A stretch of DNA of 7,354 nucleotides from a virus (lineage: Duplodnaviria > Heunggongvirae > Uroviricota > Caudoviricetes), in IMG/VR virus record IMGVR_UViG_2609459834_000007. One strand, given 5' to 3'. Positions 1 to 7,354 of this stretch are shown one piece after another (position 1 is the first letter of the stretch; each line of letters begins with the position of its first letter). The notes below the pieces were generated by a model that made no database searches, was not told the origin of the DNA, and was given only the letters and a program-made list of their open reading frames with translations. Position numbers and translations under genes: made by a program.

Positions 1-236
1 AAAACGATAACCAACTGGCGATGTTATTCACGCTGGCCAACCTGTTTCGGGCGGACCAAATGATACGTCAGTGGGAGAGATCTCACTAAAAACTGGGGAT
101 AACGCCTTAAATGGCGAAGAAACGGTCTAAATAGGCTGATTCAAGGCATTTACGGGAGAAAAAATCGGCTCAAACATGAAGAAATGAAATGACTGAGTCA
201 GCCGAGAAGAATTTCCCCGCTTATTCGCACCTTCCC

Positions 237-296
237 TGGTGCTTTATGCCTGTGAAGTTTATAATTGTGTACACATAACGAGTACACGAGGTGTTT
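237..296 (+). promoter_or_regulatory. phd-doc promoter/operator region: TATAAT -10-like hexamer followed by two Phd-type palindromic sites
   Basis: TATAAT at 260-265; perfect 10-bp palindrome TGTGTACACA at 266-275 and a related GAGTACAC at 280-287, directly upstream of the phd SD (GAGG ~288-291) and ATG at 297. The phd-doc operon is known to be autoregulated by Phd binding adjacent palindromes over the promoter; the -35 is not obvious. Confidence 0.5.
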
Positions 297-518
297 ATGC
301 AATCCATTAACTTCCGTACCGCGCGTGGCAACCTTTCTGAAGTGCTCAACAATGTTGAAGCCGGGGAAGAGGTTGAAATCACCCGCAGAGGCCGTGAGCC
401 AGCAGTAATTGTCAGCAAGGCTACTTTCGAAGCCTACAAAAAAGCGGCGCTGGATGCTGAATTTGCATCCCTGTTTGACACCCTGGACTCCACCAACAAG
501 GAACTGGTTAACCGATAA
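297..518 (+). CDS. phd: Phd antitoxin (prevent-host-death), 73 aa
   Basis: ORF translation [73 protein letters not shown] matches P1 Phd as I recall it. The track's GTG at 291 lies inside the SD, so ATG 297 is preferred. Stop TAA (516-518) overlaps the doc ATG (518-520). Confidence 0.95.
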
Positions 519-898
519 TGAGGCATATATCACCGGAAGAACTTATTGCGCTTCATGATGCGAATATAAACCGCTACGGCGGCCTGCCAGGCATGTCAGA
601 TCCGGGTAGGGCAGAGGCCATTATCGGGAGAGTTCAGGCCAGAGTTGCCTACGAAGAGATCACCGACCTTTTCGAAGTCTCCGCCACCTACCTGGTGGCT
701 ACGGCGAGAGGGCATATATTCAATGATGCCAATAAGCGTACCGCGCTAAACAGTGCGCTGTTATTTCTACGCCGTAACGGGGTGCAGGTATTTGATTCAC
801 CTGAACTGGCAGACCTTACTGTAGGCGCTGCGACTGGCGAGATATCTGTATCTTCTGTCGCCGACACGTTACGTAGATTGTATGGTTCTGCGGAGTAG
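518..898 (+). CDS. doc: Doc toxin (death on curing; Fic-fold kinase), 126 aa
   Basis: 126-aa [38 protein letters not shown]... matches P1 Doc in sequence and length as I recall it; start overlaps the phd stop (TAATG), the classic toxin-antitoxin coupling. Confidence 0.95.
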
Positions 899-902
899 AT
901 TA

Positions 903-1082
903 ATGGCACGCAAATACAACAAATTGTCCCGTGAAGCGTTAAAGATGCTTCTTGATGGCGTGAGTCGCCGCGAGGTAAAGCAATACCTGGTTGGTAAGCA
1001 AATTGGAGCCAGGACTGCTATTGCTGTGTTATGCCGTCAGGAAATGGTTGTGCTTAAACAGAGAATGCCGGGCAGCAGATAA
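903..1082 (+). CDS. small hypothetical protein, 59 aa; by position possibly the post-doc gene PdcA of P1
   Basis: ATG at 903 preceded by GGAG (892-895) with a 7-nt spacer, 4 nt after the doc stop. The track ORF 882..1082 is the same frame starting inside doc; the SD-supported 903 start is preferred. Basic protein, no domain recognised; synteny with the P1 order doc-pdcA-pdcB-lpa is from memory. Confidence 0.55.
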   Translation: MARKYNKLSREALKMLLDGVSRREVKQYLVGKQIGARTAIAVLCRQEMVVLKQRMPGSR

Positions 1083-1109
1083 AGCCCAATCAGTGATGAA
1101 AGGTGTGAT

Positions 1110-2153
1110 GTGAAAGCCGTAATTACTCCCTTTGTACAAAAAGAGCTTGGCGTCGCCACATTCAAAGTGGATCAGGAAGTCAGAAAGCTGGTGGAGGCTG
1201 GCCGTAAATTTATTATGGAGCCGGTGCCGCGTGAGTTAATCGAGCACATGGACGACGGCCTCGTTGTTTCCGAGCAAACTATGGCAACAAATGAGGCGTT
1301 GCAGCCGTTTTTTAACAGCGATGAACTGTTTCGCCGTATTGGTGGAATTGACGCGCTGGTGGCGTGGTTGCGCAGGAAAGAGGGGCAATGCCAGGCCGCA
1401 GATCGTAGCTGCTGTGACAACCATATTGTCCACGCAGAACGAGACAATAGCGCGGTGTTGTTGTGCTGGCATCACGATAACCATTACCGGATGCGTGGTT
1501 TTAATGAGCTGAAAGAAACGCTGCATAATAATCGCGTTAACTGGATACTGGATGTCGCCCGTCAGGAAATGGGGCTTTCAGATGGCCATGATTTAAGTAT
1601 TCAGGAACTGTGCTGGTGGGCTTTCATGCGCAACATGATGCACCTGATGCCGGAAGAAGTTTGCCGTATATCAATAAATAAGATGAAAGCCGCAACGCAG
1701 GATAGCGGACCTCTGAAAGAGGCGGATATTCGCCCGTATGACGATCGCGCTACAGCATATGTTCAGATGATGGAAGAACGCGCCGCGCCGATGCGTGCAA
1801 AAGTATGCCCTGTGGATGTTGACTCCGACCCTGGCATGGCGCATTTCAAAATACCAAAACTGCAATCGCTAAAATTACCTGAGTACATGGACTTTGTTGC
1901 TTCCCGTCCATGCTGTGGGTGTGGAGCGGCGGGAGCTGGCGCTCACATTACGCCTTATATCGTTCGTCATAGTCGATTATGCGCGCATGACATTTACGCA
2001 ATTCCTCTGTGCCAGTCATGCCAGCGTGATATTGAGCGTGACCGCGATAATTGGGAGAAGACGCACGGTAGGCTGGCGATGCATCAACGATTGTTCTTTG
2101 ATTACGCGCTTGGAGTCGGCGCTATCACAAGTCACTCGTCGAGCGTTAGATAA
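1110..2153 (+). CDS. hypothetical Cys/His-rich protein, 347 aa; by position possibly PdcB of P1
   Basis: Long ORF with GTG start at 1110 preceded by AAAGG (1099-1103). Contains two Cys/His clusters (CCDNHIVH...LLCWHHDNH and [37 protein letters not shown]) resembling degenerate HNH / zinc-finger motifs. Function unknown. Confidence 0.75.
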
Positions 2154-2154
2154 A

Positions 2155-2171
2155 ATTGCTCTAATGTATTG
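2155..2171 (+). promoter_or_regulatory. C1 repressor operator-like site upstream of lpa
   Basis: ATTGCTCTAATGTATTG matches the asymmetric 17-bp P1 C1 operator consensus ATTGCTCTAATAAATTT at 14/17, with the 5' 11 bp exact. It lies immediately after the stop of the 347-aa ORF and upstream of lpa, which in P1 is C1-controlled. Confidence 0.6.
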
Positions 2172-2184
2172 CTATTTCTTTAAT
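2156..2184 (+). promoter_or_regulatory. candidate sigma70 promoter for lpa overlapping the C1 operator
   Basis: -35-like TTGCTC (2156-2161), 17-bp spacer, -10-like TTTAAT (2179-2184). Weak match, but the geometry fits an operator-occluded promoter. Confidence 0.3.
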
Positions 2185-2205
2185 CGAGGGTGTTATATTC
2201 CACGT

Positions 2206-2229
2206 TGATTAGTTGACATGGGCTAATCA
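2206..2229 (+). repeat. inverted repeat TGATTAG-N10-CTAATCA in the lpa leader, spacer containing TTGACATGG
   Basis: 7-bp perfect inverted arms (2206-2212 and 2223-2229) about 13 nt upstream of the lpa start codon; could be a protein-binding site or an RNA hairpin in the 5' UTR. Confidence 0.4.
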
Positions 2230-2241
2230 GTAGGTGACAGG

Positions 2242-2694
2242 ATGTTACTTAACTGGCAGGGACGCCACTTCATGGAAATAAATCACTCACGAATAACATC
2301 GTACGAGATTGCGGATTACATGATCCGCACTAAATCTCTTCTATCAGCGAAAGAACTCGCAGCAATTCTTGAAAAGGAATACCCGCATCTGGATGTCGAT
2401 AAGCGCGATGTTTATCTGCGCTTAAAGGCTATCGCTGTGTCTAAGTATTCGTCTGTTTTGATTGATGACAGTACACGCCCACGTAGATTTCAGATCCACT
2501 CTCTGAATCCTGAATTCTTTCGCCGTAGCCGCGCTCCGCGCCGGTTTGATGAAAAACTCCAGAACGAACTCTATATGACGCAGGACGAAAAGGAACGCCG
2601 GGAGCACCAGCCTTGGGTAATGGCGCGTCAACTTTTCAATAAGGTGGCCCGTCAGCACCGTCATTACGGTAATGCCACATCCGCACGTATCTGA
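2242..2694 (+). CDS. lpa: late promoter activator Lpa (P1 gene 10)-like protein, 150 aa
   Basis: ORF of the expected size sitting between a C1 operator and pacA, as in P1. The start is uncertain: ATG 2242 or in-frame ATG 2272 (MEINHSRITSY...), both with weak SDs. Confidence 0.7.
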   Translation: MLLNWQGRHFMEINHSRITSYEIADYMIRTKSLLSAKELAAILEKEYPHLDVDKRDVYLRLKAIAVSKYSSVLIDDSTRPRRFQIHSLNPEFFRRSRAPRRFDEKLQNELYMTQDEKERREHQPWVMARQLFNKVARQHRHYGNATSARI

Positions 2695-2704
2695 TTGATT
2701 GCTT

Positions 2705-2723
2705 GCCCGTTCCGGGCCTTTTG
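2705..2723 (+). terminator. possible weak intrinsic terminator after lpa
   Basis: GC stem GCCCG/CGGGC (2705-2709 / 2713-2717) with loop TTC, followed by CTTTTG. The stem is short, so at most a partial terminator. Confidence 0.3.
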
Positions 2724-2779
2724 ACATGTGACTTTCGTTACCCTCGCGTCAAAAAGAGTTTTTACGAAAGGAAGCATAA

Positions 2780-3973
2780 GTGACCTGGGACGATCACAAG
2801 AAGAATTTTGCTCGCCTGGCGCGAGATGGTGGTTACACCATCGCACAGTATGCCGCCGAGTTTAATCTTAACCCTAATACTGCACGTCGTTATCTCCGTG
2901 CCTTCAAAGAAGACACCAGGACAGCGGACAGCCGCAAGCCAAATAAGCCAGTCAGGAAGCCACTAAAAAGCATGATCATTGATCACTCTAATGATCAACA
3001 TGCAGGTGATCACATTGCGGCTGAAATAGCGGAAAAACAAAGGGTTAATGCCGTTGTCAGTGCCGCAGTCGAGAATGCGAAGCGCCAAAATAAGCGCATA
3101 AATGATCGTTCTGATGATCATGACGTGATCACCCGCGCCCACCGGACCTTACGTGATCGCCTGGAACGCGACACCCTGGATGATGATGGTGAACGCTTTG
3201 AATTCGAAGCTGGCGATTACCTGATAGATAACGTTGAAGCGCGGAAGGCCGCGCGCGCTATGTTGCGTCGGTCCGGGGCCGATGTTCTGGAAACCACTCT
3301 TCTTGAAAAGTCTCTTTCTCATCTCCTTATGCTGGAGAACGCCAGGGATACGTGTATTCGCCTGGTGCAGGAAATGCGCGATCAGCAAAAAGACGATGAT
3401 GAAGGTACTCCGCCTGAATACCGTATCGCGAGCATGCTAAACAGCTGTTCCGCGCAGATAAGCAGCCTGATCAACACCATTTACAGCATCCGGAATAACT
3501 ATCGAAAAGAAAGCCTGGAGGCGGAAAAGCACGCTTTGTCTATGGGGCAAGCTGGCATTGTTAAGCTGGCATACGAACGAAAGCGTGAAAATAACTGGTC
3601 AGTGCTGGAAGCAGCTGAATTCATCGAGGCGCATGGCGGGAAAGTGCCGCCCCTGATGCTGGAGCAAATCAAAGCCGATCTGCGTGCTCTTAAGACCAAT
3701 ACCGATGATGAGGAAAGGCAAACAGCCGTTGGTGGCCCTTCTCTTGAAGATCTGGACAAAGTTGCGCGAGAACGGGCCGCCAACCGCCGCGCCGATGCCG
3801 CATTGTGGATTGAGCAGCGTAGGGAAGAAATCGCCGATATCGTTGATACAGGCGGTTATGGAGATGTTGATACTGAAGGTGTATCAAACGACCCATGGCT
3901 GGAACAAGACCTGGACGAAGACGAGGAGGAAGACGAAGAAGTTACCCGCAAGCTATACGGGGATGATGATTAA
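2780..3973 (+). CDS. pacA: terminase small / pac-recognition subunit PacA, 397 aa
   Basis: GTG start at 2780 with SD AAGGAAG (2768-2774). N-terminal HTH-like region [39 protein letters not shown], acidic C-terminal tail, 397 aa as for P1 PacA. Contains the pac hexamer repeats. Stop TAA overlaps the pacB ATG (TAATG at 3971-3975). Confidence 0.95.
2973..3131 (+). other. pac packaging site: 4 + 3 TGATCA/G hexamer repeats (each with a Dam GATC) flanking the cleavage region
   Basis: TGATCA at 2973, 2980, 2992, 3007; then TGATCG at 3103 and TGATCA at 3115, 3126. This matches the known ~160-bp P1 pac architecture of four and three hexanucleotide elements flanking the cut sites inside pacA. Confidence 0.85.
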
Positions 3974-4827
3974 TGGCCAGAAGTTGCGTAACGGATCCAC
4001 GTTGGCGCGAGCTGGTGGCGCTATATCGTTATGACTGGATTGCGGCCGCTGATGTTTTGTTCGGCAAAACACCTACCTGGCAGCAGGATCTGATTATTGA
4101 GTCTGTGCAGGAACAGGGTAGCAAGACATCTGTTTCGTCTGGTCACGGTACCGGGAAATCAGACATGACTTCTATCATGATCATGTTGTTCATAATCATG
4201 TATCCCGGTGCCCGAGCCATTATCGTTGCGAACAAAATTCAGCAGGTAATGACCGGTATATTCAAGTACATCAAGATAAACTGGGCTACTGCCACCAGCC
4301 GTTTCCCATGGCTTGCTGATTATTTTGTTCTGACAGAAACCGCTTTCTATGAGGTTACTGGTAAAGGTGTATGGACTGTAGTACCGAAGGGCTTTCGTCT
4401 GGGAAGTGAAGAAGCTCTCGCCGGTGAACACGCAGATCATCTTCTGTATATTATCGATGAAGCCTCCGGTGTCAGTGATAGAGCTTTCGGTATCATCACC
4501 GGTGCTCTTACCGGACAGGATAACCGCATCTTATTACTGTCACAGCCTACACGCCCAAGCCAACGTCTAAGGAGGCTGCCAATATGGCTACTATCCCTAC
4601 CCCAACTCATCCTGAATTTATCTGCCGCTTTTACTCCTGCCAAAAACGTCACTATCACTTCGTTATTGCACCAACAGAAGATGAGGCCCGCTCTCAGCTT
4701 CCTGACGCCCCATGTATTTTCTCTGCCCGTTTTTCCACTGATTCACGCAATTCTCTCAGTTACTGGTGCCTCCCTGTTAACGCTTCTGCTCAGGAGGGAC
4801 TATGAGAACGTCATTAGTCACCCGTGA
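3973..4827 (+). CDS. pacB: terminase large subunit PacB-like ORF; only the N-terminal ATPase part (to ~nt 4560) looks terminase-like, the nuclease domain is absent (probable truncation or disruption)
   Basis: Walker [10 protein letters not shown], Walker [12 protein letters not shown] and motif [10 protein letters not shown] are present. After ...SQPTRPS (~4560) the frame reads low-complexity Leu/Pro/Ser-rich sequence to the stop at 4827 and overlaps SD-supported genes in other frames. A ~195-aa protein is too short for a functional large terminase (P1 PacB is ~490 aa from memory). Confidence 0.6.
4584..4805 (+). CDS. icd: small ORF (73 aa) translationally coupled to the downstream antirepressor gene; architecture resembles P1 immI icd
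   Basis: Strong SD TAAGGAGG (4568-4575) 8 nt before ATG 4584; stop TGA overlaps the next ATG (ATGA at 4802-4805). Protein has Cys/His residues (CRFYSC, HYH). The DNA is pyrimidine-rich and carries anti-SD-like segments, so a leader role cannot be excluded. Identity as icd rests on architecture and size only. Confidence 0.45.
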
Positions 4828-5920
4828 AGAGATGATCGAGGCAATTGAACAGCACATTGCCTGTATCAGTACCAGGGATATACCAGGCGTTATTGCCAAC
4901 TACTTCATGATCACCAAACAACTTTACCGGAGAAAGGACAAGAACTCGGTTCACCGTATCCTGTTGTCTGATATCCGCGAATACCTGCTCGAACAGGGTC
5001 ATCTGAATTACGCAACCGTCGCAGCCGAAGCACGCAAGGAGGCACACAGAATGAAAGCAACTAACGTTAAATCAGAAAAAATTCATGCACCTTCAGTTCA
5101 GGAATCGGAGCTGGTGGTTGTTCAGAATCAGTCTGATGAAATTCCCGTTCTGGAATGGCAGGGAGCGCGTGTAGTGACAACCGAGACTCTTGCTAGAGGG
5201 TATGGGACAGAAACAATCCGTATTCGCCAAAATCATCATGAGAACAAAGTACGCTTTGTTGAAGGGAAGCACTTTTTCAAAGTTGAAGGAGAATCATTGC
5301 GCGAGTTGAAGCACAGAGTAGCTTTAAACTACTCTGTAAAAATTGCTCGCAATGTTCGCTCACTCACCCTCTGGACAGAACGCGGCGCAGCCCGCCACGC
5401 TAAAATGCTCGAAACCGATCAGGCATGGGCATTCTTTGAAAAACTGGAAGACAGCTACTTCCGACAAAAAGAACAGCAACCGGTCGCAATCCCCCAGACG
5501 ATTCCAGAAGCTCTGCGCCTGGCTGCCGAGTTAGCTGAACAAAAGCAACTTCTGGAACAGAAAGCCCACCAGCTAAATCAGCAGCTGGTGGCCGCCGCTT
5601 CTAAAGTCGATTTTGCCGACCGGGTATCAGTAGCTAAAGGGATCCTGATTGGGAATTTTGCAAAGGTCGTTGGACTTAAACAAAATGCGCTGTTTGCCTG
5701 GTTACGGGAGAACGGCATTCTGATAGCGTCCGGAGGCCGTAAAAATGTACCGTTCCAGCAGTACATCAACGCGGGGTATTTCACGGTGAAAGAAGTGGTG
5801 CTGGATGATGAAGATGGCTACCAGATACGGTTGACGCCTCAATTAACGGGTAAAGGCCAGCAGTGGTTGACGCGTAAACTGCTCGATGCTGGTTTGTTAA
5901 AACCGGTGGCGGCTGAATAA
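4802..5920 (+). CDS. ant1: antirepressor-like protein with ORF6N-type N-terminal domain and KilAC/ANT C-terminal domain, 372 aa (Ant1-like)
   Basis: Strong SD CAGGAGGG (4791-4798) before ATG 4802. Central motif [42 protein letters not shown] fits the ORF6N family; C-terminal ...[46 protein letters not shown] fits the phage antirepressor KilAC domain. Predicted ~42 kDa, matching the reported size of P1 Ant1. Confidence 0.8.
5051..5920 (+). CDS. ant2: possible shorter in-frame isoform (Ant2-like, 289 aa) from an internal start
   Basis: In-frame ATG at 5051 (Met84 of the long ORF) preceded by a consensus SD AAGGAGG (5036-5042) with an 8-nt spacer. Predicted ~32 kDa, matching the Ant1/Ant2 pair (42 and 32 kDa) reported for P1 immI. 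Confidence 0.45.
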   Translation: MKATNVKSEKIHAPSVQESELVVVQNQSDEIPVLEWQGARVVTTETLARGYGTETIRIRQNHHENKVRFVEGKHFFKVEGESLRELKHRVALNYSVKIARNVRSLTLWTERGAARHAKMLETDQAWAFFEKLEDSYFRQKEQQPVAIPQTIPEALRLAAELAEQKQLLEQKAHQLNQQLVAAASKVDFADRVSVAKGILIGNFAKVVGLKQNALFAWLRENGILIASGGRKNVPFQQYINAGYFTVKEVVLDDEDGYQIRLTPQLTGKGQQWLTRKLLDAGLLKPVAAE

Positions 5921-5927
5921 TGGAAGA

Positions 5928-5949
5928 ATGCCCGGTTGATGCCGGGCAT
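5928..5949. terminator. bidirectional intrinsic terminator between the convergent antirepressor gene and c1
   Basis: Perfect 8-bp GC-rich stem ATGCCCGG / CCGGGCAT (5928-5935 / 5942-5949) with loop TTGATG, followed by AATTTATT on the + strand and a T-rich stretch on the - strand. It lies 8 nt after the ant stop and 3 nt before the c1 stop. Confidence 0.6.
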
Positions 5950-5952
5950 AAT

Positions 5953-6804
5953 TTATTGCGCGCTTTCGGGGTTGTCGTTTACTGGCTGCCCCTTCTTGGT
6001 TTTACGGCTGCGCGTAACTGATGCGGCTGACTTAACCTTTTTCTCTTCGCGAGTGATGGCAATTTGTTTTTTTACATTTTCAATATCTGCCAGGCGATAT
6101 ATTTTTGCTTGCGGCCAGCGGCCGCAGATGATCGGTTCTATGGAGTCATAAAGGCTAAATTTTGCTTTTTCGAATTCACCGTTGATGATAATTCCATCAC
6201 GGAGAGTTTCATCGCAGATAAACACGCCACACAGTGGCACATGGTAACTAACTGATTTACCATCATTGTAGTTAGGGCTACTGGAAATGTAGTGGACGCG
6301 CAGCATTGTTTCGCTAAAGCCGTGTACGCGCATACGGAATTTTTCATCCTCCGGGTACTGCTTCATTAGCTCTTTTGTTGCTTCCAGGTTCTCTATGTAT
6401 TTCGCACTGTGCTCATTGATCCCCGCGCTTTTTTGGATGCGAATGTCCTTATCAATCAGATGAATAATGCGGCCAGCGGTCATGTTGACGCTGTTCACAG
6501 CTTCTGTCTGATAAGTTGTAACCTTACGCACACCGCGAAGGATGTTAGGCACTGGATATAAAATAGTCTTTGGGATATTGAGGTCTGGGTACTGTTCCAG
6601 TTCCCGCGCCATTAAAGTCCATTTATCAATTTCAGCCTGAATGCTGTCAGTTTCTTTGAACGGTAGAACGACAACCGGGCGTACAGGACGACCGTCGCTG
6701 GCTGTATCAACGTGTTGGGCGCGTGCAACAGCTTTTTTTAGAAAGAGATCCCTGAAGCTGACGAACTCCTGGTACAGTTGTTCGCCGTAGACATAATTTA
6801 TCAT
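5953..6804 (-). CDS. c1: C1 repressor of lysogeny (P1 immC), 283 aa
   Basis: 283-aa ORF MINYVYGEQLYQEFVSFRDLFLKKAVARAQHVD... matches P1 C1 in sequence and length as I recall it. Strong SD GGAGGAGG (reverse complement of 6809-6816) before the ATG at 6804. Confidence 0.95.
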   Translation of the reverse strand: MINYVYGEQLYQEFVSFRDLFLKKAVARAQHVDTASDGRPVRPVVVLPFKETDSIQAEIDKWTLMARELEQYPDLNIPKTILYPVPNILRGVRKVTTYQTEAVNSVNMTAGRIIHLIDKDIRIQKSAGINEHSAKYIENLEATKELMKQYPEDEKFRMRVHGFSETMLRVHYISSSPNYNDGKSVSYHVPLCGVFICDETLRDGIIINGEFEKAKFSLYDSIEPIICGRWPQAKIYRLADIENVKKQIAITREEKKVKSAASVTRSRKTKKGQPVNDNPESAQ

Positions 6805-6819
6805 TGATCCTCCTCCAGA

Positions 6820-6834
6820 ATTGACATGGTCAAT
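6820..6834. repeat. inverted repeat ATTGAC-ATG-GTCAAT just 5' of the c1 ribosome-binding site
   Basis: 6-bp perfect inverted arms around a 3-bp centre, 3 nt beyond the c1 SD (6809-6816) on the c1 leader side. Contains TTGACATGG, which also occurs at 2213-2221. Confidence 0.4.
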
Positions 6835-6898
6835 AACGCCCGGCTGAGAAAACCGGTCATTACTGACCTATATTATAGAGGGATCAAACGAAAATAAT

Positions 6899-6915
6899 AG
6901 ATTTATTAGTGCATT
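6899..6915 (-). promoter_or_regulatory. C1 operator-like site in the coi-c1 intergenic region (Op99-type)
   Basis: + strand AGATTTATTAGTGCATT is the reverse complement orientation of the C1 consensus (AAATTTATTAGAGCAAT), 14/17 matches. It sits at the 3' end of coi, upstream of c1, consistent with C1 autoregulation. Confidence 0.5.
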
Positions 6916-7124
6916 TATTGTGAGTCTAACTGGTTAGTTGCCATGAGATATTCGATTGTGTCAGTGAGGTCATCCAGGTCGTCTTGGGTGATGCGGTACT
7001 CCTGATTGGATATCTTTGAGTAGTGTTCAGCAATGGCGCGGGCTGCGTCGGTTTCGGCAGGGTCTACAGATAAAGCGTTAGAGCAATGTCTAACGTCGTC
7101 GATGGTTGGTTGAATGAAAGCCAT
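6915..7124 (-). CDS. coi: Coi, C1 inactivator, 69 aa
   Basis: 69-aa ORF MAFIQPTIDDVRHCSNALSVDPAETDAARAIAEHYSKISNQEYRITQDDLDDLTDTIEYLMATNQLDSQ immediately upstream of c1 on the same strand; size and position match P1 coi. SD GAGG upstream on the - strand. Confidence 0.9.
   Translation of the reverse strand: MAFIQPTIDDVRHCSNALSVDPAETDAARAIAEHYSKISNQEYRITQDDLDDLTDTIEYLMATNQLDSQ
7071..7087 (-). promoter_or_regulatory. weaker C1 operator-like half-match inside the coi coding region
   Basis: - strand reads ATTGCTCTAACGCTTTA: the conserved ATTGCTCTAA half is exact (10/10), the AT-rich half diverges (12/17 overall). Confidence 0.3.
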
Positions 7125-7203
7125 AATTATGCCTCACTGTATTGACAACACAGAGCCTGAAGCTCTGACCTACTGTTTCACCCATGATCCATGCTGGGGT
7201 AAT

Positions 7204-7354
7204 CTAACAACGTTGCGCTGTGTGTAAGATGAGCAATGCATAGGGAAGGTGCGAACAAGTTCCTGATATGAGATCATCATATTCATCCGGAGCGCATCCC
7301 AGAGGGACATCATGAGCCATCAACTCACCTTCGCCGATAGTGAATTCAGCACTA
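7204..7354 (-). CDS. partial ORF (3' end; start lies beyond the right window edge), possibly an imcB-like immC ORF
   Basis: The - strand frame is open from the window edge to a TAG at 7204-7206 (...SAEFTIGEGELMAHDVPLGCAPDEYDDLISGTCSHLPYALLILHTAQRC*). No domain recognised; the positional guess is from memory of P1 immC (coi preceded by imcB/imcA). Confidence 0.3.
   Translation of the reverse strand, partial: SAEFTIGEGELMAHDVPLGCAPDEYDDLISGTCSHLPYALLILHTAQRC

Follow-up and report, generated by a model that had tools for sequence, protein, structure and literature searches.

What remains of the large terminase subunit when a pacB gene keeps its ATPase motifs and then runs into unrelated sequence, and can the element that carries it still package its DNA? 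The question arises from a stretch of 7,354 nucleotides of tailed-phage DNA (IMG/VR record IMGVR_UViG_2609459834_000007; hereafter the window), in which a sequence-only reading had found a pacB frame confined to the terminase N-terminus, and had suggested, should this be real, either an element unable to package DNA on its own or a 3' part of pacB located elsewhere. From comparison with sequenced relatives, we propose that the gene is very probably a pacB pseudogene that arose when illegitimate recombination removed ~1.2 kb, in a single deletion, from a member of the RCS47 / vB_EcoM-673R5 group of P1-like phage-plasmids (Punavirus/IncY).

The pacB reading frame in its P1-like context

The window keeps the P1 gene order phd-doc-pdcA-pdcB-lpa-pacA-pacB-c1-coi-imcB with 94.5-95.4% identity to P1 over positions 236-7243, and by this order and identity appears to belong to a P1-like phage-plasmid (Punavirus / IncY; Table 1). 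Phage-plasmids of the RCS47 / vB_EcoM-673R5 / JL22 type resemble it more closely, sharing the order from phd to imcA, the genes icd and ant and 97-99% nucleotide identity, and an IS5-family insertion in imcA is common to the window, RCS47 and pS1-ZIM-01-A p2. The IS5 end on the left is 100% identical to the IS5 copy beside the ttr/metQ cargo in contigs L005 and L006 but shares only 82-88% identity with the ISKpn26/IS5 end at the right, of which a complete copy in L005 is flanked by a 4-bp ATAG duplication; the left junction between IS5 and phd is shared by none of the complete plasmids. Pfam recognizes PhdYeFM_antitox and Fic on the phd and doc genes of L005-L009, which are identical to those in the window, and the N-terminal helix-turn-helix of PacA scores below the cut-off (HTH_23, 22.6 against 24.6 bits). 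The pac cleavage positions fall at ~3055-3064 when the annotated P1 coordinates are shifted by the 265-nt offset.

Table 1. Genes, sites and junctions of the window (identical genes are those on which the Pfam family was found)
Feature	Position	Strand	Remarks
IS5 3' end	1-235	+	borders the P1-like part immediately ahead of the phd promoter
phd, doc (addiction module)	291-518, 518-898	+	same position as in P1
pdcA, pdcB (DUF968)	882-1082, 1110-2153	+	collinear with P1; PF06147 on identical genes
C1 operator Olpa, controls lpa	2155-2171	+	consensus with 3 mismatches; position as P1 Olpa (L002 2420-2436)
lpa, late promoter activator	2242-2694	+	150 aa; PF25716 BPP1_LPA on identical gene; collinear with P1
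LPpac, late promoter of the pac operon	2726-2744	+	identical to P1 LPpac region (L002 2991-3009)
pacA	2780-3973	+	intact, 397 aa, the length of P1 PacA; contains pac
pac site with TGATCA/G hexamers	2985-3165		179/181 bases identical to P1
pacB-derived ORF	3973-4827	+	284 aa
pacB remnant, codons 1-196	3973-4560	+	Walker A, Walker B and SQPT kept
Deletion junction	4560/4561		BLAST break points; sequences on both sides
Non-PacB tail, 88 codons and stop	4561-4827	+	icd leader, icd and ant start in the wrong frame
icd-like gene	4584-4805	+	intact, 73 aa; PHROG 1426 over full length, E = 2e-43
ant, antirepressor	4802-5920	+	intact, 372 aa; SD-like AGGAGGG upstream
c1, repressor	5953-6804	-	intact, 283 aa; PF27008 Phage_P7_repressor_C1 on identical gene
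coi, C1 inactivator	6915-7124	-	69 aa; collinear with P1 coi
ISKpn26/IS5 5' end inserted in imcA	7243-7354	+	continues into L003 ISKpn26 and RCS47 IS5 copies

The sequence-only reading had described a pacB frame coupled to pacA through TAATG and bearing three ATPase motifs, and both features are borne out: the ATG shares TAATG with the pacA stop codon (3971-3975), and Walker A (SSGHGTGKS, residues 55-63), Walker B (residues 157-167, including LYIIDE) and SQPT (residues 190-193) all lie on columns that are invariant in an alignment of 40 PacB sequences (G57, H58, G59, G61, K62, S63, D162, E163, S190, Q191, P192 and T193). Residues 1-196 are 82% identical to P1 PacB in a protein alignment (E = 6e-121) and 100% identical to PacB of L003, the closest plasmid relative, and residues 197-284 give no significant match to P1 PacB; homology therefore covers exactly residues 1-196 and ends at nucleotide 4560, where the reading had placed its limit. 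The length it gave for P1 PacB, about 490 residues, also agrees with the 494 residues annotated for gp110 in GenBank. Like P1 PacB, the ORF directly follows pacA, with the same overlap and the same three motifs; unlike this pacase or terminase large subunit, it ceases to be PacB at residue 196 of 494 and continues into an unrelated tail of 88 residues. By its position after pacA and its high identity it would be the orthologue of P1 PacB, but evidently not a full-length one.

The tail, which had been called rich in Leu, Pro and Ser, contains 22.7% Leu, 9.1% Pro and 9.1% Ser. As had also been claimed, it overlaps two genes with Shine-Dalgarno sequences in other frames, namely icd and the first 26 nt of ant (with pacB as frame 0, ant is in frame 1 and icd in frame 2). 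The icd Shine-Dalgarno sequence, AAGGAGG at 4569-4575, stands 8 nt upstream of the ATG; the L003 orthologue is annotated as a 'host cell division inhibitor Icd-like protein', and the icd stop codon and the ant ATG share the sequence ATGA. The database name of the fusion ORF, 'putative cell division repressor domain protein', is corrected by the present analysis.

Authentic PacB proteins do not end near residue 196, in agreement with the claim of truncation: nearly all of the best 120 homologues (47-90% identity; from Enterobacterales, Vibrio, Photobacterium, Aeromonas and Pseudoalteromonas) are 490-530 residues long, with query coverage of 95-100%. As neither form of the protein, truncated or full-length, matched a Pfam family, domains were assigned with a structure model, Foldseek and PHROGs. 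Of the ORF, PHROG 2 ('terminase large subunit') covers only residues 33-195 (E = 4.8e-16). In the AF2 model of full-length PacB (pLDDT 87.9), residues 261-263 link two domains; the first, the ATPase domain, extends to about residue 260, so that its helices 197-202, 232-242 and 248-253 and its strand 217-222 lie beyond the truncation. A sequence-only search of the PDB gave marginal matches (Sf6 gp2, E = 0.15), and Foldseek with the full-length model retrieved Sf6 gp2 at 2.5e-21, followed by the T4 gp17, HK97 and D6E large terminases, as well as isolated ATPase domains of about 255 residues (4znl, TMt 0.70) and isolated nuclease domains (5c10, TMt 0.71; 8dkr). The 40-sequence alignment shows at least 90% conservation for the acidic residues D293, D356, D358, D457 and D460, all of which fall in the missing part. 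The ORF is thus without a terminase nuclease domain, as the sequence-only reading had held. On its motifs it appears to retain the N-terminal ASCE ATPase signature of TerL (Walker A, Walker B and C motif), and according to the model it would not form a complete ATPase domain of core and lid. Its product, in all probability, is an ATPase fragment without the last strand and lid region and without the whole RNase H-like nuclease domain.

The deletion junction

BLAST comparison with the relatives shows that ~1,209-1,212 bp are missing, the larger value corresponding to L003 5826-7037, with a microhomology of 1 nt (C) at the junction. L001, L003 and L004 align collinearly with the window on both sides (236-4560 and 4560-7243/7354), at an identity of 98.5-99.1%, with the exception of 145 nt of ant (5212-5356) that do not align to RCS47, within surrounding ant sequence that is ~94% identical. 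In RCS47, vB_EcoM-673R5 and several IncY plasmids, the intact order is pacA, pacB, a C1-operator-like site, an isrK-like RNA, the antisense RNA C4, icd, ant and c1, and an insertion of ant between pacB and c1 has been noted (PMC6906374). The deletion takes pacB codons 197-494 together with the operator-like site, the isrK-like RNA and C4, and thus includes 315 bp of intergenic DNA outside pacB; all of these are present in the RCS47 / vB_EcoM-673R5 / JL22-type phage-plasmids and none is in the window. Its distal end lies 24 nt ahead of the icd ATG, so that the pacB frame continues through icd out of register and there encodes the tail. The missing codons do not exist in the DNA, which excludes programmed frameshifting or other recoding of pacB. 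We found no description of a 1.2-kb deletion from pacB to C4 in the literature that we examined.

The sequence-only reading had left room for the 3' part of pacB to lie elsewhere. If pacB were split and not lost, the remaining two-thirds, or a second complete pacB, would reside elsewhere in the cell and packaging would work. P1-like plasmids are indeed common (the region has matches in 512 of 5,426 complete E. coli genomes), partial pacB alleles of other kinds exist, including fragments 93-494 and 149-494, and a rearrangement is plausible, as the contigs carrying the allele all end in IS5-family copies. However, the deleted DNA was found neither in the window nor in the allele-carrying contigs L005-L010, which extend up to 19 kb, and a single deletion explains both break points as well as the loss of the 315 bp outside pacB, which fits loss and not translocation. 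A C-terminal fragment, moreover, would according to the structure model lack part of the ATPase fold, the cut lying inside the domain. We consider a split gene very improbable.

The icd-ant cassette without its upstream control region

In the L003 segment that is deleted here, Rfam detects C4 at 75.9 bits and isrK at 60.8 bits, and the segment also carries the C1-operator-like site TTTGCTCTAATAAATTG. The window itself has no Rfam match to C4 or isrK at the gathering threshold, and around the junction (4300-4900) there is none to C4 even at E <= 1. By k-mer complementarity, C4 and the icd leader share matches of 7 nt only, at L003 7024-7030 (deleted) and 7074-7080 (inside icd). Like P1 immI (c4, icd, ant1/ant2), the cassette has icd and ant joined by a stop-start overlap, and in its relatives it also has C4 and a C1-operator-like site upstream; unlike P1 immI, the window cassette has neither, so its cis-encoded antisense control is gone. 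Judged by sequence, then, it seems to have the coupled gene pair of an immI-type module and not the C4 upstream of icd. Ant contains ORF6N (2.1e-19) and ANT/KilAC (1.2e-30) domains in Pfam and matches PHROG 63, 'anti-repressor Ant' (E = 3.6e-129), and in megablast only the 3' end of its gene (5570-5904) matches P1 ant, at 86% identity. The c1 region shows 95% nucleotide identity to P1.

It could be argued that the deletion was selected as a rewiring, in which icd and ant were freed from the operator and C4 and placed under the Lpa-dependent late promoter of the pac operon, making the element a satellite or interference module that uses the PacB of a superinfecting P1-like phage through pac. 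The distal end of the deletion leaves the Shine-Dalgarno sequence, icd and ant intact, LPpac, PacA and pac are conserved, no intrinsic terminator was found on the + strand between pacA and icd, and the allele occurs in several samples. A promoter scan within the truncated pacB gave matches of 9/12 only, six against 3.1 +/- 1.8 expected, which does not amount to an internal promoter. However, there is nothing remarkable in a random deletion with one end in 315 bp of intergenic DNA, the carriers are near-clonal (1-2 SNPs in 7 kb) with no sign of recurrence or selection, and no copy of the allele occurs among about 5,400 complete genomes and 72,556 plasmids. We regard such a rewiring as very improbable, and equally so its fuller form, in which the terminator of the isrK-like RNA was also removed and the truncated ATPase fragment might poison the motor of the helper.

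Distribution of the allele and its consequences

The exact 284-aa protein is encoded on 16 contigs in independent ENA, Logan and NCBI assemblies, and it occurs in two named E. coli isolates and one IMG/VR contig; among the carriers are E. coli 2-474-04_S1_C2 (GCA_000704645.1), E. coli 2-156-04_S1_C3 and ERR10687987. The carrier contigs are 99.97-99.99% identical to the window, and all are short drafts bounded by IS copies within 19 kb. The junction is spanned by none of the 5,426 complete E. coli genomes, the 72,556 PLSDB plasmids or the phage records, and the exact junction is found neither in 185,579 GTDB species-representative genomes nor in JGI metagenome contigs. On these sequence comparisons the truncated allele is real and rare. 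Its carriers may represent one clone, and their near identity supports the reality of the allele while saying nothing on selection. An origin of the junction in faulty assembly or sequencing, through collapse or chimerism of a contig from a molecule with full-length pacB, would agree with its confinement to short IS-ended drafts and its absence from complete records, but is scarcely credible given that the same junction was recovered from different samples and assemblers (SPAdes-style NODE, MEGAHIT-style k141, Logan, NCBI draft and IMG/VR) and that the site has no collapse-prone repeat, with only the single nucleotide of microhomology.

We therefore return to the pseudogene formed by a single deletion. 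An ancestor with pacA, a 494-codon pacB, a C1-operator-like site, an isrK-like RNA with terminator, C4, icd, ant and c1 would have undergone a deletion joining pacB codon 196 to the point upstream of the icd ATG, with a product consisting of PacB 1-196 and 88 residues of wrong-frame icd sequence. The P1 GenBank annotation assigns pac cleavage to PacB, which is reportedly required for this step in P1. The element would then, as the sequence-only reading had proposed, be defective in packaging or dependent on a helper: capable of neither pac cutting nor DNA translocation, it would form no infectious or transducing particles by itself, and would persist as a plasmid or a remnant. As neither PacA nor the pac site is damaged, a helper phage could still package the element, with a co-resident or superinfecting P1-like phage supplying PacB in trans. 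Its architecture suggests that icd and ant are now without their own operator, presumed promoter region and C4 brake, and would depend entirely on read-through from the pac operon for their transcription.

The deletion is an unexceptional case of a phage decaying to a plasmid. P1-like phage-plasmids are known to lose genes and so become plasmids (Pfeifer and Rocha, Nat Commun 2024, PMC10879196). Like the defective P1-derived plasmids described there, the present element has lost a lytic-cycle function and kept its plasmid addiction and immunity genes; unlike them, it is visible as a 7-kb IS-bounded piece only. Our knowledge of terminases and of P1 immunity is unchanged by the finding. What it offers is one instance, resolved to the base, of the gene loss by which phage-plasmids become plasmids according to comparative studies, and it flags a P1-like lineage in E. 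coli whose spread is expected to require either plasmid transfer or a helper phage, which bears on the transduction of cargo such as the ttr and dms clusters and the resistance genes on its relatives.

A terminase gene cut short in a P1-like element

The window comes from a P1-like (Punavirus / IncY) phage-plasmid. Between its ends, both of them IS5-family termini, it is collinear with P1 at 94.5-95.4% identity, and RCS47, vB_EcoM-673R5 (673R5) and JL22, together with many E. coli plasmids, match the same segment at 97-99%. Its genes run in the order phd, doc, pdcA, pdcB, lpa, pacA, pacB' (the truncated pacB), icd and ant, with c1, coi and imcB on the opposite strand; icd, ant, c1 and coi are intact. 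A GC-rich 9-bp hairpin (ATGCCCGG...CCGGGCAT) separates the convergent ant and c1 and is likely a bidirectional terminator.

Coordinates of features in the window, in L003 (plasmid NZ_CP145673.1, the closest plasmid relative with intact pacB) and in two contigs carrying the truncated allele (L005 and L006)
Feature	Window	Other sequence
ttrBCA-metQ cargo		L006 1-6117
IS5 copy, 3' end	1-235	
IS5 end and -35 region of phd promoter	230-240	
39 extra bp between IS end and P1 sequence		L005 1768-1806
P1-collinear segment	236-7243	
Left flank of deletion	236-4560	L003 1501-5825
pac site	2985-3165	
pacB' ORF	3973-4827	
Deleted DNA	absent	L003 5826-7037
Operator-like site, isrK-like RNA with terminator, C4	absent at 4560/4561	L003 6723-7037
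Right flank of deletion	4560-7354	L003 7038-9834
icd	4584-4805	
ant	4802-5920	
Hairpin	5928-5949	
ISKpn26/IS5, 5' end, inserted in imcA as in RCS47	7243-7354	
ISKpn26 in imcA, ATAG duplication	7243	L005 ~8814 and 10011

The pacB' frame encodes 284 aa. The sequence-only reading had described this ORF, its TAATG overlap with pacA (start ATG on stop codon) and its Walker A, Walker B and SQPT motifs, and the ORF call, motifs and PacB alignment confirmed every detail; all three motifs fall on invariant columns of a 40-sequence PacB alignment. It had also placed the loss of PacB homology after about nt 4560. In pairwise BLASTP, residues 1-196 align with residues 1-196 of P1 PacB (494 aa) at 82% identity (E = 6e-121). 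No alignment extends past residue 196; residues 1-196 are also 100% identical to PacB of L003. The last 88 residues, read earlier as a Leu/Pro/Ser-rich tail over two genes with Shine-Dalgarno (SD) sequences, do contain 22.7% Leu, 9.1% Pro and 9.1% Ser, and overlap icd and the start of ant, each in another frame and each with an SD. The tail is nothing other than icd leader, icd and initial ant bases read in the pacB frame, and by these alignments pacB in the window is a deletion pseudogene. NCBI names the ORF 'putative cell division repressor domain protein' (KDV91267.1, KDY99630.1); this name is misleading, the product being a truncated terminase, and probably reflects the icd overlap.

Authentic PacB does not end near residue 196, because its homologues are nearly all 490-530 aa long (best 120, at 95-100% coverage and 47-90% identity, from Enterobacterales, Vibrio, Photobacterium, Aeromonas and Pseudoalteromonas), and the truncation stands. 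PacB lacks a Pfam model. The match to PHROG 2 ('terminase large subunit') extends over residues 33-474 in the full-length protein versus only 33-195 in pacB'. The AlphaFold2 model of full-length PacB (P0003; mean pLDDT 87.9) consists of two domains with a low-confidence linker between them (261-263). In Foldseek searches of the PDB it matches the full-length large terminases Sf6 gp2 (2.5e-21), T4 gp17 (2e-15), HK97 (6e-14) and D6E (~1e-13), as well as isolated nuclease domains (Sf6 5c10, TMt 0.71; E217 8dkr) and isolated ATPase domains (P74-26 4znl, TMt 0.70). Judged by the modelled domains and these matches, the cut at residue 196 removes the last strand and helical part of the ATPase domain and the whole nuclease domain, the latter in agreement with the earlier claim. 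The conserved acidic residues D293, D356, D358, D457 and D460 all lie in the lost part. Further partial forms of PacB occur in the protein collection (P0109, P0007, P0008, P0054): P0109 joins PacB 1-241 to 78 unrelated residues, and the others span 93-494, 1-396 and 149-494; all of them may be either true truncations or contig ends.

The deletion and the DNA it removed

Against three relatives the window shows one alignment gap only. Because both flanks align with this single gap, 1,212 bp of L003 are missing (1,209 bp by comparison with 673R5), and a single 1.2-kb deletion accounts for the truncation. The junction, ...CCCAAGC/CAACGTC..., is ambiguous by one common C; it looks like illegitimate recombination, and not like a site-specific or IS-mediated event. 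The distal end lies 24 nt 5' of the icd ATG and spares the AAGGAGG SD.

Besides pacB codons 197-494, the deletion took a 17-bp C1-operator-like site directly after the pacB stop (TTTGCTCTAATAAATTG, 2 mismatches to consensus), an isrK-like RNA (Rfam 60.8 bits) together with its intrinsic terminator, and a C4 antisense RNA gene (75.9 bits). The window has no Rfam match to C4 or isrK even at E <= 1, and no DNA related to the deleted 1.2 kb was found elsewhere in it or in the longer carrier contigs. Between pacB and c1 the relatives carry a second immI-like module that is complete, made of the operator-like site, isrK-like RNA with terminator, C4, icd and ant. Insertion of ant and small ORFs at this position is on record for RCS47-type elements (PMC6906374); the published accounts we found name no more than 'two short orfs and ant'.

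A real and rare allele

An assembly artefact is very unlikely, because carrier contigs 99.97-99.99% identical to the window over ~7 kb, built by different assemblers, hold the same junction. The allele is real: the exact 284-aa product occurs on 16 contigs (sources include ENA metagenome assemblies ERZ15609764, ERZ27287426 and ERZ27280935, Logan assembly ERR10687987 and NCBI draft GCA_000704645.1), with NCBI protein records from E. coli 2-474-04_S1_C2 and 2-156-04_S1_C3, and the exact junction is found on one IMG/VR contig. It is also rare. A 241-bp junction probe matched, by one or both halves, 512 of 5,426 complete E. coli genomes, none of which spans the junction; neither does any of 535 matching PLSDB plasmids or any phage record, and the exact junction was not found in GTDB species-representative genomes or JGI metagenome contigs. 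All carriers are nearly identical, which suggests a single lineage in circulation.

In E. coli 2-474-04_S1_C2 (L006), the DNA immediately upstream of phd is a ttrBCA (tetrathionate reductase)-metQ cargo with IS5; the same cargo recurs on many enterobacterial plasmids, among them some from Klebsiella, Hafnia, Citrobacter and Enterobacter and P1-like ones from E. coli. No complete plasmid with the window's left IS5-phd junction was found. In the window the left IS5 end directly adjoins the -35 region of the phd promoter; L005 has 39 extra bp at this IS end, so the junction varies within the lineage. ISKpn26 in imcA is flanked by a 4-bp ATAG target duplication and is therefore a simple insertion. 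To its right, L005 continues into cra, cre and a Tn3-family transposase, a flank shared at full identity with E. coli plasmids 75-97 kb in size. One of these, pRHB31-C22_2, has intact pacB directly beside c1. A dms gene cluster is associated with IS5-family copies at the imcA site in RCS47 and pRHB31-C22_2.

Packaging and control of icd-ant

Both pacA (397 aa) and the late promoter LPpac are intact, and so is the pac site, which lies within pacA, contains TGATCA/G hexamers and is identical to that of P1 at 179 of 181 positions. This cis packaging signal survives, whereas the pacase large subunit has been lost. In the P1 annotation PacA and PacB together cut pac, and from what is known of large terminases the element alone would be unable to initiate or drive headful packaging; a helper P1-like phage supplying PacB could get it packaged. 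The sequence-only reading of a packaging-defective or helper-dependent P1-like element is supported, directly for the truncated PacB and by inference for packaging.

The icd-ant cassette has lost its own operator-like site, its presumed promoter stretch and its cis-encoded C4 brake. No plus-strand intrinsic terminator was found between pacA-pacB' and icd-ant, and probably the cassette's only expression is as part of the Lpa-dependent late operon. It is highly improbable that selection favoured the deletion for turning icd-ant into a helper-responsive satellite or interference module.

In the publications consulted we found no description of this particular pacB-to-C4 deletion; the allele itself is already public in databases under its misleading name. 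Gene loss is documented as a route by which P1-like phage-plasmids turn into plasmids (PMC10879196), and the window adds a further defective element derived from P1, with its lesion precisely mapped.
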